A stretch of 43,759 nt of DNA, from NCBI GenBank assembly GCA_038243565.1, contig JBBSQZ010000001.1, positions 1 to 43,759 on the forward strand, read 5' to 3'. Positions 6,886 through 37,447 of the stretch are shown one piece after another; the first letter of the stretch is position 1, and each line of letters begins with the position of its first letter. The DNA is from Rhodothermales bacterium (GTDB taxonomy: Bacteria; Bacteroidota; Rhodothermia; Rhodothermales; Rubricoccaceae). The translations under genes were made by a program, and so were the position numbers. A model generated the notes under the pieces. That model was not told the DNA's origin. It worked only from the letters and a program-made list of their open reading frames with translations, and ran no database searches.

Positions 6886-7917
6886 GGTCACAGTCTCCCC
6901 GAGGGCGAGCCGTTTTCTGGCCACCAGCCGCTCCGCAAGCAACAGGAGCACACCCAGTGCCAGCGGCCACTGGAACTGCTCCGCCGCGGCGTCGACGCGG
7001 TCCGAGGCGACGACGACGCGGTCGAGGCCGGCGAGTTCGTCATTGATCTGTCCCGCGGCCGAGCCACCGGTGCCGACGTGGACGAGCTTCGACCCGGCGA
7101 GGTCCTTCAGGGCGCCGGGTTCGTACGTCGAGATCACCGTGTTGCCCTGGCGGTCGCGCTTGAAACCGCCCTGGCGGCCACGCTGAACGTCCGGGATGGG
7201 TCCGCCGGCGTCCGTCCCGACGCCGAGCGCGAGCATCGTGACGCCGGTCTGGCGGAGCGCCGCGGCGGCCTGGTCCAGCCCGCTCTCGTGGTTCTCGCCA
7301 TCGCTCACGACGAGCAGCGCGCGCGGGCGCTTCGCCGCGGCGGGGTCGTTCTGCGCCGCGGCGTCGAAGGCCTCGGAGGCGACGCGGAGCGCGGCTGAGA
7401 AATCCGTCCCCTGGATCGCGATCTGCTCCGGGTCGACCGACTCGAGGAAAAGGCGGACGGCCGAGCGGTCAGTCGTGAGCGGGCACTGCAGGAAGGCCTC
7501 GCCGGCGAAGATCACGAGCCCCACGCGGTCGCCGCGGCGCGCCTGGACGATGCGCTCGATCTCGAGCGTCGCCCGGTCGAGGCGGCTCGGCGCGACGTCC
7601 TCGGTGCGCATCGACTCCGAGACGTCGAGGGCGATGACGAGGTCGAGGCTCTCGGACTTCGCCTCGCGCGTCGTCGCGCCGACGCGCGGCCCGGCGAGGG
7701 CGAGGGCGAGCCGGCCGAGCGCCGCCGCCGTGAGCGCGGCGCGGACGGTCCGCTGCCGGGCGAGCGGCGCGAGGCGCCGCAGCTGATCCGCCGCCCGCGG
7801 CCCGAGGAACAGGCGCAGCGCCTCGCGCCGCCGCCGCGCCGCGACGACGGCCAGCGCCGCGACCGCGGGCACGAGCACGAGCACGACGAGGAGCAGGGCG
7901 GGGGAGCGGAAGGTCAT
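6877..7917 (-). CDS. batB: VWA-domain membrane protein BatB
   Basis: N-terminal TM, a VWA MIDAS motif (DLVIALDVSESM), LLVVSDGENH, and a C-terminal TM. The stop TGA is embedded in a hairpin arm. Confidence 0.8.
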   Translation of the reverse strand: MTFRSPALLLVVLVLVPAVAALAVVAARRRREALRLFLGPRAADQLRRLAPLARQRTVRAALTAAALGRLALALAGPRVGATTREAKSESLDLVIALDVSESMRTEDVAPSRLDRATLEIERIVQARRGDRVGLVIFAGEAFLQCPLTTDRSAVRLFLESVDPEQIAIQGTDFSAALRVASEAFDAAAQNDPAAAKRPRALLVVSDGENHESGLDQAAAALRQTGVTMLALGVGTDAGGPIPDVQRGRQGGFKRDRQGNTVISTYEPGALKDLAGSKLVHVGTGGSAAGQINDELAGLDRVVVASDRVDAAAEQFQWPLALGVLLLLAERLVARKRLALGETVTAV

Positions 7918-34254: not shown

Positions 34255-34297
34255 GAACGGCCATCGGGGAATGCACTCCCGATGGCCGTTCTCGTTT
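34255..34297 (+). terminator. Putative intrinsic terminator after the VWA gene
   Basis: A perfect 14-bp stem (gaacggccatcggg / cccgatggccgttc) and a 9-nt loop, followed by tcgttt. Confidence 0.55.
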
Positions 34298-34406
34298 GCC
34301 CCCGCCGTTTCCCGATGCCCGTTGGTCTTTCCCGGCCGAGCGCACGCAGCGCCTCGGTCCGCCGCTGGCCGCGTCGTACGTTCGCGGCACCCTGACGCAC
34401 GCCGAC

Positions 34407-35144
34407 ATGCCCGCCACCGCCCGCCCGACGTCTCGCCCGTCCCGCGCGACGCCGCCCCGCACCGAGGCGCGTCCTGCGCCGAGCACGGAGCCGACGACCG
34501 CGACGCCAGCCGAGGCGCTCGAGGAGACGCCGTACGCGCGCTACCTCCGGACGCTCCCCGATGGCCTCAAAGCCGACCTCATCCGCGGCGAAGCCGTCAT
34601 CGACATGTCCGCCAGCGTCGCTCACGAGCTCATCTTCGGCTTCCTCTACACGCTGCTCAAGCTCTACGTCGAGGAGCGCGGGCTCGGCGTCGTGCTCGGG
34701 TCGCGGACGCTGATGCGCGTCGATGACGAGAACGGATACGAGCCCGACCTGCTCTTTGTCCGGGCCGAGCGCCTCGGCATCATCGGCGACGTGGATGTGA
34801 GCGAGCGCGTGGACCTCGCCGTCGAGATCGTCTCGCGGACGTCGGGCCGGCGCGACCGAGAGACCAAGTTCGAGGGCTACGAGCGCCTCGGCGTGCCCGA
34901 GTACTGGCTCATCGACCCGCTGCGCGGCGAGGCGACGTTCTACGCGCTCGGCGACGACGGCACCTACCGCGCGACCCCGCTCGATGCCGGCGTCTTCGCG
35001 AGCCGCGAGCTTCCCGGCTTCCGCCTCGACCCGCAGGTTCTCTTCGGCGAGACGCTCCCGCCCGTGCTGCCGCTGCTCACCGCCCTGCTCGCCGAGCCGA
35101 TGCCCGAGGCGCCGAACGCCGCAGAAGACCCCGACGCCGCGTGA
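34407..35144 (+). CDS. Uma2-family (DUF820) putative endonuclease
   Basis: YEPDLLFV...DLAVEIVS...D...K...Y...GVPEYWLIDP is the PD-(D/E)xK-like Uma2 signature. It has a Pro/Thr-rich N-terminal tail. Confidence 0.75.
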   Translation: MPATARPTSRPSRATPPRTEARPAPSTEPTTATPAEALEETPYARYLRTLPDGLKADLIRGEAVIDMSASVAHELIFGFLYTLLKLYVEERGLGVVLGSRTLMRVDDENGYEPDLLFVRAERLGIIGDVDVSERVDLAVEIVSRTSGRRDRETKFEGYERLGVPEYWLIDPLRGEATFYALGDDGTYRATPLDAGVFASRELPGFRLDPQVLFGETLPPVLPLLTALLAEPMPEAPNAAEDPDAA

Positions 35145-36040
35145 GCGTCCGTCCCAAAAAGCGCCTCGGGCAGCACTTCCTGGCCGACCCGGCCATCGTG
35201 CAGGCCATCGCGGAATCCGTCCACGTCCCGCCGGGTGGGCGCCTCGTCGAGATCGGGCCTGGCGAGGGCGTCCTGACGGCCGAGCTGCTGCGCCGCTTCC
35301 CGGACCTCGTCGCCATTGAGGTCGACCCCGAGGCCGTCGCGCACCTCCGCGCCCGTTTTCCTGGATTGGACCTCCGCGAGGCGGACGTGCTGGATGTGGA
35401 CTGGGGGGCGGTGAAGGAGGACGGGTCGGAAAAGGAAGGAGGAAAAAGGGGAGCGGGAAACGCATGCCTGTCTTCCCCTTCCCCACTTCAACCCTCCCAC
35501 CCCTCAACCCCGCTCACCGTCGTCGGCAACCTGCCGTACTACATCACGTCGCCGATCCTGTTTGCGCTGCTCGATGCCCGCGCGCACGTCGGGCAGGCCG
35601 TGGTGATGGTGCAGAAGGAGGTCGCGGATCGCTTGGTGGCGCCGCACGGCTCGAAGACGTACGGGACGCTCTCGGTCTACTTCCAGCTGTTCGCCCGCGC
35701 GCGGAAGCTCTTCGACGTGCCGCGGCACGCGTTCCGCCCGCCGCCGAACGTCGAGAGCGCCGTGATCGACGTCGACTTCTCGGTGGAGGCGCCGGACGTG
35801 CCGTTCGAGGCGCTCCAGCGGGTCGTGAAGGCGGCCTTCGGGCAGCGCCGCAAGATGTTCCGCAACAGCGTCGCGCCGCTCTTCGCCTCGGCAGGCCGCA
35901 CGATGCCCGAGCGCTTCGAGACGCTCCGCCCCGAGGCCGTCCCGCCCGAGGAATTCGTCGCCCTCGCGCAGGCGCTCGAGGGGGCCGACGGGCAAATGCA
36001 GGAGACAGAAGGCAGAGGACAGAGGACGGACGACAAATAG
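35141..36040 (+). CDS. rsmA: 16S rRNA (adenine1518/1519-N6)-dimethyltransferase RsmA/KsgA, carrying an internal ~33-codon insertion
   Basis: KKRLGQHFL, VEIGPGEGVLT, VVGNLPYYITSPI. The GTG start overlaps the Uma2 stop (GTGA). The insertion at 35414..35512 has hairpin-element composition. Confidence 0.9.
   Translation: MSVRPKKRLGQHFLADPAIVQAIAESVHVPPGGRLVEIGPGEGVLTAELLRRFPDLVAIEVDPEAVAHLRARFPGLDLREADVLDVDWGAVKEDGSEKEGGKRGAGNACLSSPSPLQPSHPSTPLTVVGNLPYYITSPILFALLDARAHVGQAVVMVQKEVADRLVAPHGSKTYGTLSVYFQLFARARKLFDVPRHAFRPPPNVESAVIDVDFSVEAPDVPFEALQRVVKAAFGQRRKMFRNSVAPLFASAGRTMPERFETLRPEAVPPEEFVALAQALEGADGQMQETEGRGQRTDDK
35405..35515. repeat. Hairpin-element-like sequence embedded in frame in rsmA
   Basis: A purine-rich half (ggtgaaggaggacgggtcggaaaaggaaggaggaaaaaggggagcgggaaacgcatgc) is followed by a pyrimidine-rich half (ctgtcttccccttccccacttcaaccctcccacccctcaaccccgctcacc). 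cttcaaccctcc is shared with the element at 1054-1090. Confidence 0.6.
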
Positions 36041-36070
36041 ATTCCGTCCTCCGTCCTCCGTCCTCCGTCC
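36011..36070. repeat. Heptad-periodic hairpin element (rsmA end to mgtE ATG)
   Basis: The 5' arm ggcagaggacagaggacggacgac lies inside the rsmA C-terminus. The loop aaatagatt contains the stop. The 3' arm (CCGTCCT)x3.9 ends at the ATG at 36071. Confidence 0.8.
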
Positions 36071-37447
36071 ATGCCCGACCTCGCCTCGCTCGACACGATC
36101 CCCGACGACGACCTCCTCGACGCGCTCGTGGACGACGTCGCGGCGCTCGTCGCCGACGGGCGCCGCGGCATGGTGCTGAACCTCGTCGCGGACCTCCGGC
36201 CGGCCGACTTCGCGGACCTGCTCGCGCGCCTGCCCGAGGACGCCGCGCAGCAGGTCGTGCGGTGGATCCCCGGCGAGGGCACGTCCGAGGCCATCGCCGA
36301 GCTCGACTCGTCGGACCGCTCCGACCTTCTCGAGGGCCTCACCACGTCCGAGCTCGTCGTCCTCCTCGACCACCTCGACACCGACGACGCGGCCGACGTG
36401 CTCGCCGACGTCGACGGCGCCCGCGCCGGGGCGGTCCTGACGCAGCTCGAGGACGCCGACGACGTCGAGGCGCTGCTGCGCTACGGCGAGGACACGGCCG
36501 GCGGCCTGATGGGCACCGAGCTCGTCGCGGTGCCGGCCACCGCGACGATCGCCGAGGCGACCGAGGCCGTCCGCGCCCACGCCGACGCCGTCGACCACCT
36601 CTACGCCGTCTACGTCCTCGACGCCGAGGGCCGTCTCGCCGGATCGGTCCCGCTCACCGACCTGCTGCTGTCGCAGGCCGACACGCGCATCGCGGACGTG
36701 ATGGACGACGCCGTGCTGACGGTCGGCGTGAACGTGGACCAGGAGGAGGTCGCGCGCATCATGGAGCGGTACGACCTCGTGGCGCTGCCCGTCGTCTCGG
36801 CCGCCGGCCGCCTGCTCGGCCGCATCACCATCGACGACGTCGTGGACGTCATCCGCGAGGAGGCCGAGGAGGACCTCCAGCGCGCCGTCGGCATCACAGG
36901 CGACGAGGAGCTCTCGACGTCCGTCTTCAGGGTCAGCCGCGGGCGCCTGCCGTGGCTCGCCGTCGGCATGGCCGGCGCGTTCGTGTCGGGCCTCGTCATC
37001 CAGGGCTTCGAGGGCGCGCTCGAGCGCGCGATCGTCCTCGCGACGTTCATCCCGCTCGTCACGGCGACGGGCGGCAACGCGGCCATCCAGAGCGCCGCGA
37101 TCGCCGTCCAGGGCCTCACGTCGGGCGACCTGCGCCTGCGCGACGGCCTGAAGCGGCTCGGCAAGGAGATGCTCGTCGCGCTCGTGAACGGCGTCGTGCT
37201 CGGCATCGCCATCGGCGCTGTCGTGGTCGCGATGGGGCAGGGCGACCCGACGCGCCTCGCGCTCACGGTCGGCCTGACGCTGCTGTCGGTCATCGTCATC
37301 GCGACGACCAACGGCGCGCTCGTGCCGTTCCTGCTGCAACGCGCCGGCATCGACCCGGCGTCGGCGATGGGGCCGTTCGTGACGACGCTGAACGACATCG
37401 TCGGGTTGAGCGTCTACTTTGCGATTGCGACGCTCGTCTATCTGTGA
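36071..37447 (+). CDS. mgtE: Magnesium transporter MgtE
   Basis: MgtE N-domain, a CBS pair (MDDAVLTVGVNVDQEEV...VVSAAGRLLGRITIDDVVDVI), and a TM domain with GGNAAIQS. Confidence 0.95.
   Translation: MPDLASLDTIPDDDLLDALVDDVAALVADGRRGMVLNLVADLRPADFADLLARLPEDAAQQVVRWIPGEGTSEAIAELDSSDRSDLLEGLTTSELVVLLDHLDTDDAADVLADVDGARAGAVLTQLEDADDVEALLRYGEDTAGGLMGTELVAVPATATIAEATEAVRAHADAVDHLYAVYVLDAEGRLAGSVPLTDLLLSQADTRIADVMDDAVLTVGVNVDQEEVARIMERYDLVALPVVSAAGRLLGRITIDDVVDVIREEAEEDLQRAVGITGDEELSTSVFRVSRGRLPWLAVGMAGAFVSGLVIQGFEGALERAIVLATFIPLVTATGGNAAIQSAAIAVQGLTSGDLRLRDGLKRLGKEMLVALVNGVVLGIAIGAVVVAMGQGDPTRLALTVGLTLLSVIVIATTNGALVPFLLQRAGIDPASAMGPFVTTLNDIVGLSVYFAIATLVYL

Follow-up and report, generated by a model that had tools for sequence, protein, structure and literature searches.

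The window analysed here, 43,759 nucleotides of an uncultured soil-dwelling Rhodothermales bacterium of the Rubricoccaceae (GenBank assembly GCA_038243565.1, contig JBBSQZ010000001.1, positions 1 to 43,759 of the forward strand), carries rsmA (ksgA), the gene of a near-universal rRNA methyltransferase. Between the conserved motifs DVLDVDW and VVGNLPYY, this gene encodes about 26 extra residues (~35429-35506) that many congeners and the solved KsgA structures do not have. The 3′ part of the inserted DNA belongs to a family of hairpins built from 7-base units (heptads) and found at many places in the genome, and, in relatives, the same codon position is either empty or filled by heptad arrays of unrelated types. 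We regard it as probable that the segment inside rsmA is a tolerated, decaying passenger, derived from such an element and lying at a hypervariable hotspot. Here, G000 is the genome under study, other G numbers stand for other genomes, P numbers stand for metagenomic relatives, and a congener is a member of the same genus.

Extent and authenticity of the insert

The features of the host gene and its insert, together with one related hairpin of the window, are as follows.

35141-36040, plus strand: coding sequence of the host gene rsmA/ksgA, with a GTG start, a product of 299 aa and a TAG stop; assigned from the list of open reading frames (ORFs), Pfam, KsgA structures, and AlphaFold (AF2) with Foldseek.
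35429-35506, plus strand: segment inserted relative to congeners with an empty site, approximately residues 97-122 (EKEGGKRGAGNACLSSPSPLQPSHPS); delimited by the congener alignment, the comparison with PDB structures, and a predicted local distance difference test score (pLDDT) of 56-79 without secondary structure.
35414-35461, plus strand: purine-rich 5′ half, 86% purine with only two T, which includes about five ancestral codons and shows no detectable likeness to other elements.
35462-35467, plus strand: central GCATGC, which looks like the ATGC/GCAT signature that borders the loops in the hairpin family (GGGGAAATGC...GCATTTCCCC).
35473-35511, plus strand: pyrimidine-rich 3′ arm, TTCCCCTTCCCCACTTCAACCCTCCCACCCCTCAACCCC, a member by blastn of the TTCCCC-(TTCCACC/CTTCAAC)n family.
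985-1095, no strand assigned: intergenic hairpin of the same family, whose 3′ arm (1054-1089) contains the 12-mer CTTCAACCCTCC and ends 2 nt before an ATG.

Across the insert region, the ORF reads ...DVLDVDWGAVKEDGSEKEGGKRGAGNACLSSPSPLQPSHPSTPLTVVGNLPYY..., with 38 residues between the W and VVGNLPYY, versus 10-17 in insert-free congeners and in the rest of the family; the initial annotation of this DNA had put the spacing in characterised KsgA proteins at about 10-15. Similarly, KsgA structures align to residues 6-94 and 123-278 of the G000 protein and leave about 28 residues between them without a counterpart, and in the Coxiella KsgA the two aligned blocks are contiguous. At the empty site, the insert-free congeners share ALRxExGPDAxPLT. 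The initial annotation had placed a hairpin-element-like sequence, in frame, at 35414-35512; the insert is real, its 3′ half being a family member and the whole being absent from several congeners and from all outgroups, although its true span is slightly narrower than the one proposed, which holds the ancestral codons mentioned above. The succession of a purine half, GCATGC and a pyrimidine half is present as described, with a purine content of 86% in the first half and 22% in the second.

The insert does not result from the assembly of this metagenome-assembled genome (MAG), because a contig from an independent assembly (Logan, run X1, the best-matching soil metagenome run; 1365 nt, depth 39) covers 35100-35548 with no gaps and four substitutions. 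Among the runs searched for it, the insert sequence was present in DNA metagenome runs only. Other Logan contigs of run X1, of lower depth (4.7-6.8), match both flanks of the insert (35292-35522) and skip 166-215 nt between them; these contigs probably come from co-occurring relatives with a different insert or none.

Membership in the heptad hairpin family

When the 3′ arm was compared with the whole genome by blastn, the best match was 87% identical over 38 nt (E 9e-6), and 13 matches were found at E<1e-3, versus none in 40 shuffles; the identity to many family members is 84-87% over 37-39 nt. The matched loci are arms of hairpins with the layout GGTTGAAGGGTGGAAGGGTGGAAGGGGAA, a unique loop of 8-45 nt and then TTCCCCTTCCACCCTTCAACCCT..CACCCTTCAACCC, and these hairpins sit outside recognisable coding sequence, many of them finishing a few bases before an ATG. 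There are approximately 46 such hairpins in G000 (about 92 arm instances), and heptad hairpin elements are 70-110 bp long. The insert and the family have in common a loop-proximal TTCCCC cap and alternating TTCCACC-like and CTTCAAC-like units. In addition, GGGAAACGCATGC occurs once, at the insert centre, and its family form, GGGGAAATGC, is found 20 times and the complement of this form 21 times, versus about 2.5 expected. The sequence that the initial annotation had recognised in the element at 1054-1090 is also there: the 12-mer CTTCAACCCTCC occurs in exact copies at 1078-1089 and 35486-35497, and three matches with at most one mismatch were found versus 0.07 expected. At the level of the genome, there are 141 tandem tracts of period 7, versus 3-26 for periods 5, 6 and 8-11, and the heptads fall into 74 canonical types.

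The 5′ half behaves differently from the 3′ arm in the same comparison, as it has no match in the whole genome at E<1e-3. Aligned without gaps to the 5′ arm of the family, it is about 53% identical, which a purine-only sequence reaches by chance. When Rfam was consulted at permissive E-values, the hairpins matched eukaryotic and viral microRNA-precursor models and, nearby, one small RNA, all below threshold, and these were dismissed as generic stem matches.

A hypervariable site in relatives

Among the congeners, the insert is missing from G001, G003 and G006, in which the W and VVGNLPYY are 14-15 residues apart, and inserts of 34 and 26 aa are found at the same place in G005 and G004, respectively. 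The insert of G005 is a near-perfect heptad hairpin, (GGGATGN)4...(NCATCCC)3, with an inverted-repeat score of 35 versus 14.7 ± 2.5 under a null in which each half was shuffled separately, so that the purine/pyrimidine asymmetry was kept; its heptads are unlike those of G000. The 5′ part of the insert is common to G000 and G004, and the centre to G004 and G005. Three metagenomic relatives nearer to G000 (P0002, P0003 and P0005) have the same 3′-arm family as G000, and the insert peptides are unrelated even between P0002 and G000, whose cores are nearly identical. The 5′ arm of P0002, (GGCCAGT)4, does not pair with its own 3′ arm. Inside the clade of G000, the filled P0002 has P0004, whose site is empty, as its sister (support 95/82), and on the RsmA core tree of the genus species with and without an insert are intermingled.

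The same pattern extends beyond the genus. In the clade that comprises this genus, Rubricoccus and Rubrivirga (support 100/100), 12-77 residues occupy the site, versus 10-15 in other genera and outgroups, with three small exceptions; across the family, the site has 10-17 aa in 33 of the 71 Rubricoccaceae RsmA clusters and 20-77 aa in the other 38. The inserts of the cultured species Rubrivirga marina and R. litoralis measure 38 and 77 aa, respectively. At least eight unrelated heptad arrays occupy this one loop across the clade, the types at the site including GGGGCAG, CCCCAGT, CCCCCAA, GGTCCCC, ATCCCCA, CTCAACC, GGAGTTT and GGCCAGT, among others. For instance, the sisters G013 and G052 have nearly identical cores and unrelated 31-aa inserts. 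Thus, instead of a homologous insert of similar sequence, which the initial annotation had named as the result that would speak against its proposal, close orthologs have either an empty site or different heptad arrays. On these alignments, the insert is one state of a hotspot that spans three genera and not a private event of G000.

Purines are more frequent in the first half than in the second in all but one of 27 orthologous inserts (26 of 27), and an inverted repeat with z ≥ 2.7 is detected in only six of the 27, being strong only in G005. The polarity of a hairpin therefore persists while the pairing mostly decays, which argues against selection for the stem and in favour of repeated gain, remodelling and loss.

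Some inserts of the same type are found in different clades, as is the case of P0006 with G005 (GMG...ASHIPHxP) and of P0016 with P0002 (MASGQWxVGSG), so that a given array has either been exchanged between species by recombination or been acquired more than once, in parallel. In two genomes, rsmA is out of frame inside the insert: G046 (L050, genus Rubricoccus; 238 nt of inter-motif DNA), in which there is a large hairpin of the form (GGGACTA)n...(CCCAGTC)n, and G058 (L045, genus Rubrivirga; 86 nt), neither length being divisible by 3. These frame shifts could be long-read indel errors or a real off-state. The idea that the insert-free lineages have no heptad repeats was also considered, with about 3.5 kb from each of 30 relatives, and was abandoned, this sample being too small and such tracts being present in outgroups as well.

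An intact enzyme with an additional loop

RsmA of G000 matches the Pfam family RrnaAD (PF00398) with an E-value of 2e-47 (161.7 bits versus a cut-off of 24, residues 6-254), and solved KsgA/RsmA structures match it at E 1e-38 to 1e-31. Both the S-adenosylmethionine (SAM)-binding motif I (E-x-G-x-G-x-G; VEIGPGEG) and the catalytic motif IV (N-L-P-Y; VVGNLPYY) are in the ORF, and the protein keeps all 72 of the invariant columns in a 72-sequence RsmA alignment. The AF2 model built on this alignment has a pLDDT of 89.1 (93-98 in the core blocks) and a predicted template modelling score (pTM) of 0.84, and the top 50 Foldseek hits are all KsgA, Dim1 or TFB1M, with target-normalised TM-scores of up to 0.87; the model thus has the two-domain KsgA fold. 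Judged by its sequence, rsmA of G000 codes for an intact KsgA-type methyltransferase, predicted to methylate A1518/A1519 of the 16S rRNA. Another rsmA candidate in the genome (E 9e-4) was rejected, as it matched merely through the motif of another SAM-methyltransferase.

In the model, residues 95-124 form a coil (pLDDT 56-79) between a helix (88-94) and a strand (125-130). This strand, β4, runs into the catalytic NLPY; its opposite end is the one at which the insert joins it. In the 3.1 Å complex of E. coli KsgA with the 30S subunit, rRNA is contacted by residues 114-117, 124, 141, 147, 155, 159, 221, 222 and 248 (PMC8216452); the insert maps to E. coli KsgA residues ~103-105. The insert is predicted to be a disordered surface loop that is compatible with the fold. 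Since the invariant residues are all kept, the site naturally ranges from 10 to 77 aa and the region is a predicted coil, a tolerated surface loop seems the most suitable description. The initial annotation had left open whether the insert is tolerated or exapted: the first option agrees with the intact motifs and the predicted coil, while no result supports the second, and the variable content of the site speaks for a passenger rather than an exapted part of the enzyme.

Proposed decay of the purine-rich arm and a possible history

The two arms of these hairpins are not equivalent when they are read as codons. The pyrimidine-rich arms of the family are stop-free in 2.8 of the three frames on average, versus 1.46 for the purine-rich arms (their reverse complement), which are open in fewer frames because their GGGTTGA units carry TGA. 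If the 3′ arm of G000 were matched by a perfectly complementary one, the latter would have a stop in two of the three frames. Due to the TGA in the purine arm, an in-frame copy would survive only if this arm were stop-free in the frame used or had been rewritten. The observed 5′ half has just two T in 48-52 nt, and such a T-poor half fits a one-sided decay in which stop codons may have been purged.

From these data, the following history can be proposed. The segment would be a translated, old and partly decayed copy of one of the heptad hairpins of this genome (purine-rich arm, unique loop and pyrimidine-rich arm), an element that normally lies flush against the ends of genes and that, in this case, would have come to lie in the loop leading into β4 of the Rossmann fold. 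As this loop is opposite the catalytic NLPY, the extra residues would be harmless, presumably neutral, and could persist as a disordered loop on the surface. The pyrimidine-rich arm would have been kept because it is open in nearly every frame and codes for an innocuous stretch of Pro, Ser, Leu and Thr, whereas the purine-rich arm, with TGA in about half of the frames, would have had to be stop-free in the frame used or be rewritten, losing both its family likeness and its pairing. The same codon position is a hotspot in the three-genus clade, where hairpin arrays of many unrelated heptad types come in, have their arms remodelled one at a time and are lost again. As for its entry, the DNA may have come from other hairpins, through templated copying or gene conversion, or have grown locally.

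Weighing of the alternatives

Several results weigh against an element-derived passenger. The halves of the G000 insert are not complementary beyond what their composition produces (inverted-repeat score of 16 versus 14.5 ± 2.7, p ~0.29, under the null described above), their lag-7 autocorrelation (0.45 and 0.48; shuffle p of 0.24 and 0.14) is not significant, and tandem-tract detection passes over the insert even when the threshold is soft. Similarly, the RNA fold of 35400-35525 (-53.7 kcal/mol) does not stand out from that of shuffled sequences (-49.1 ± 3.9; z = -1.17), and, with no such excess, a maintained mRNA hairpin in the G000 insert was discarded. The insert has no complementary 5′ arm of the form GGGTTGAAGGGTGGAA...GGGGAA and retains nothing of it apart from its purine richness. 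Consequently, of the element architecture that the initial annotation had described, the polarity and the 3′ arm stand, but neither significant pairing of the arms nor a significant 7-base periodicity is seen in G000; since pairing, periodicity and fold are all non-significant there, the identity of the element rests on one 38-nt arm and on the comparative data. Target-site duplications or terminal inverted repeats could not be defined by comparing empty and filled sites, the former because the flanks of these sites have diverged, and a mobile-element insertion is therefore not mechanistically demonstrated. Finally, one rsmA was found in G000, a MAG of 332 contigs that is 78% complete, which leaves some room for a second copy.

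The loops of the family all differ and unrelated heptads occupy the same site in relatives, which fits local growth or overwriting just as well as transposition. It is possible, therefore, though we would not put it first, that the insert grew in place by replication slippage at a GC-rich junction of purines and pyrimidines, its likeness to the family being due to a genome-wide slippage or mutation bias or to later gene conversion. Already at the empty site, a run of purines precedes one of pyrimidines and short GC palindromes occur (GAGCGGGGCGACCCGCTG, GAGAAAGGCGGGCCGCTC), and the unpaired (GGCCAGT)4 arm of P0002, the scarcity of significant inverted repeats among the orthologous inserts and the lack of any recognised target-site duplication or terminal inverted repeat would all agree with such growth. 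However, both arms of the G005 insert are of a single heptad type, and the 3′ arm in G000 reproduces the higher-order layout of about 46 hairpins, with its cap and its alternating units, at the identities given above; since independent growth does not predict a shared layout of this kind, some templated copying seems to be needed. A quite different explanation would be a functional cassette, that is, a contingency locus working by heptad slippage (7 not being a multiple of 3) or a structure in mRNA or DNA that tunes rsmA or the downstream mgtE. The occupation of the site in many lineages of the three-genus clade, the near-perfect heptad arrays in the coding sequence of G005, P0002, G065 and G051, and the rsmA frame shifts within the inserts of G058 and G046 would agree with it. 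Nonetheless, the G000 copy has neither a tandem tract nor a significant stem, pairing has decayed in most species, about half of the species of the family do without the insert, and the region has no promoter-like or terminator-like site and no Rfam family; moreover, the G058 and G046 assemblies, of 1-4 contigs, are probably long-read ones, in which single-base errors are common in G runs. We thus consider a functional cassette very unlikely.

We give hardly any credence to an artefact of assembly or binning, in which repeat-containing reads would have been joined into a chimera. A MAG of many contigs invites the suspicion, as does the capacity of heptads to attract reads from many loci (depth of 1400-2900 at 36018-36085); nevertheless, the Logan contig is gap-free over the region, the frame is preserved, and inserts of the same 3′-arm family are present in three other assemblies, which come from other samples. 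At the opposite extreme, it can be speculated that the loop before β4 is the target, in the Rubricoccaceae, of an active, hairpin-directed rewriting by which complementary heptad arrays are installed, replaced and excised at small palindromes already present there, perfect arrays turning rsmA into a slippage switch. Although we find this improbable, it could explain why arms fall into families and loops are unique, and the switch would turn 16S dimethylation on and off, affecting kasugamycin sensitivity and ribosome quality control.

Other in-frame heptad inserts in the genome

The genome was also scanned for heptad tracts inside long ORFs with a coding-type G+C content at third codon positions (GC3); Pfam was used to check three of the resulting cases, the others being assessed by visual inspection. 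The following inserts were found.

C201:659-690: alaS, inside the catalytic tRNA-synt_2c domain, between NAR and VDTGMG (...IQYNARKGNGEWGMGDGEKANAGQEPTT...VDTGMG), confirmed by Pfam.
C5:8491-8514: MsbA-like ABC exporter, immediately ahead of the Walker A strand (...FAYGGEGHEAEAMGHEGKDNGSESSHASSPIPHASHEPDWVLRDVSF...).
C161:5816-5843 and 7455-7531: two sites in an IcmF-like MeaB-mutase fusion.
C56:6482-6504, C97:6925-6950 and C41:16398-16422: further in-frame heptad inserts in conserved genes.

Besides alaS, the exporter and the fusion, the genes of a GlcD/F-like oxidoreductase, a PD40 protein and a GT2 glycosyltransferase carry such inserts. As read from these ORFs, in-frame heptad inserts appear to be a general habit of the G000 genome.

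Relation to known repeats

To our knowledge, Rickettsia and Wolbachia are the only textbook cases of housekeeping genes with palindromic repeats inserted in frame. The Rickettsia palindromic elements (RPEs) are small palindromic repeats, dispersed over the genome, that are found in frame in unrelated housekeeping genes, where they are translated and compatible with the fold (Ogata et al. 2000 and 2002, summarised in PMC10969869). Like the RPEs and the related Wolbachia palindromic elements, the heptad hairpins have many intergenic copies and are also present in frame within several conserved genes (rsmA, alaS, the ABC exporter and the IcmF-like gene). By contrast, RPEs are about 150 bp long and form families, each with a conserved peptide, that can be aligned between species, whereas the elements described here are shorter (70-110 bp), have heptad arms, a unique loop and no conserved peptide, are replaced by unrelated arrays in sister species, and seem to turn over much faster. 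No sequence relationship between the two is expected.

Heptanucleotide repeats are also known from Xanthomonas (GGGAATC) and Nostoc (GGGGA(C/T)T, STRR-type), with about four units per array, dispersed and mostly no more than 50 bp away from a start or stop codon, sometimes overlapping the latter; the published account presents them as direct arrays, seldom found in coding regions (PMC4692102). The elements of G000 resemble them in their G-rich 7-base units and in the arrays that G000 and its relatives have at the stop codon of rsmA, but they differ in forming inverted pairs that fold into hairpins, in the many types per genome, and in the in-frame copies inside genes. Like REP/REPIN and MITE-type repeats, they are short, abundant, hairpin-forming and mostly intergenic; unlike these, they have no conserved terminal inverted repeats or target-site duplication that could be identified, and their loops differ between copies. 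No transposase has been identified for the heptad hairpin, nor was a search for one made. Some relatives have ORF-internal tandem repeats whose unit is not a multiple of three, as in contingency loci, although the G000 copy is no tandem array, no on/off polymorphism was shown from the contigs of this sample, and rsmA is a housekeeping gene and not a surface or restriction gene. A search of the literature on heptad hairpins in Rubricoccus and Rubrivirga found nothing relevant.

The outcome known from Rickettsia would thus be reached, in a free-living, GC-rich bacterium of the Rhodothermales, by a structurally different element. The dynamics are unusual as well, with one codon position of a near-universal rRNA methyltransferase holding, among close relatives, one of at least eight unrelated arrays or none. 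The site can be regarded as a natural experiment on how much arbitrary sequence a loop of a conserved enzyme can carry and on how heptad hairpins are made, copied and erased. It also calls for caution in annotation, as low-complexity inserts rich in Gly/Glu and then in Pro/Ser are, in these genomes, repeat DNA and not functional domains.

The rsmA C-terminus and neighbouring sequences

A second heptad hairpin lies at the 3′ end of rsmA, before mgtE.

35987-36037, plus strand: C-terminal extension of RsmA (~GADGQMQETEGRGQRTDDK), encoded mostly by the 5′ arm of the hairpin that follows; at this end, the proteins of relatives are shorter by 14-17 residues.
36004-36069, no strand assigned: rsmA-mgtE heptad hairpin, with arms of 27 nt (36004-36030 and 36043-36069) that are 81% complementary and a fold of -39.3 kcal/mol.

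The 3′ arm of this hairpin contains (TCCGTCC)4, within a heptad tract at 36043-36070, and the rsmA stop codon, TAG (36038-36040), falls in its loop. RsmA of G000 ends in ...ALEGADGQMQETEGRGQRTDDK*, versus ...ALEGA*, ...ALEGDAG* or ...ALGGQ* in close relatives, so the initial annotation was right to derive this C-terminus from the 5′ arm of the following element. Each close relative has, after rsmA, a hairpin of a different heptad family (rsmA-mgtE spacers L051-L054), the first heptads of which provide the rsmA stop codon: GGCATGA in P0002, GGGATAG in P0003 and CCAGTAG in P0004. The type found after rsmA in P0004 (CCAGTGG) is that of the in-gene 5′ arm in its sister P0002, which hints at an exchange between two hairpins about 600 bp apart. 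In run X1, the summed contig depth rises from about 40 to 1400-2900 at 36018-36085, over the (TCCGTCC)n arm, and this array must therefore be common to very many loci or organisms in the soil sample.

Promoters and terminators were also sought over 35000-36200, and none was detected. The gene that precedes rsmA (34296-35144) overlaps its GTG start and corresponds to a Uma2-family (PF05685) gene at the same position in the P0002 contig; the contigs of P0003 and P0004 do not have this gene, and their rsmA follows a MerR or VWA gene instead. The neighbourhood upstream of rsmA is, hence, also variable between relatives. Within RsmA itself, G005 (L002) has a second small insert, SLPRPG, at approximately residue 215, in the loop after the DF motif, and P0016 has GPERPGVG after LLDARA; both are minor further indel sites.

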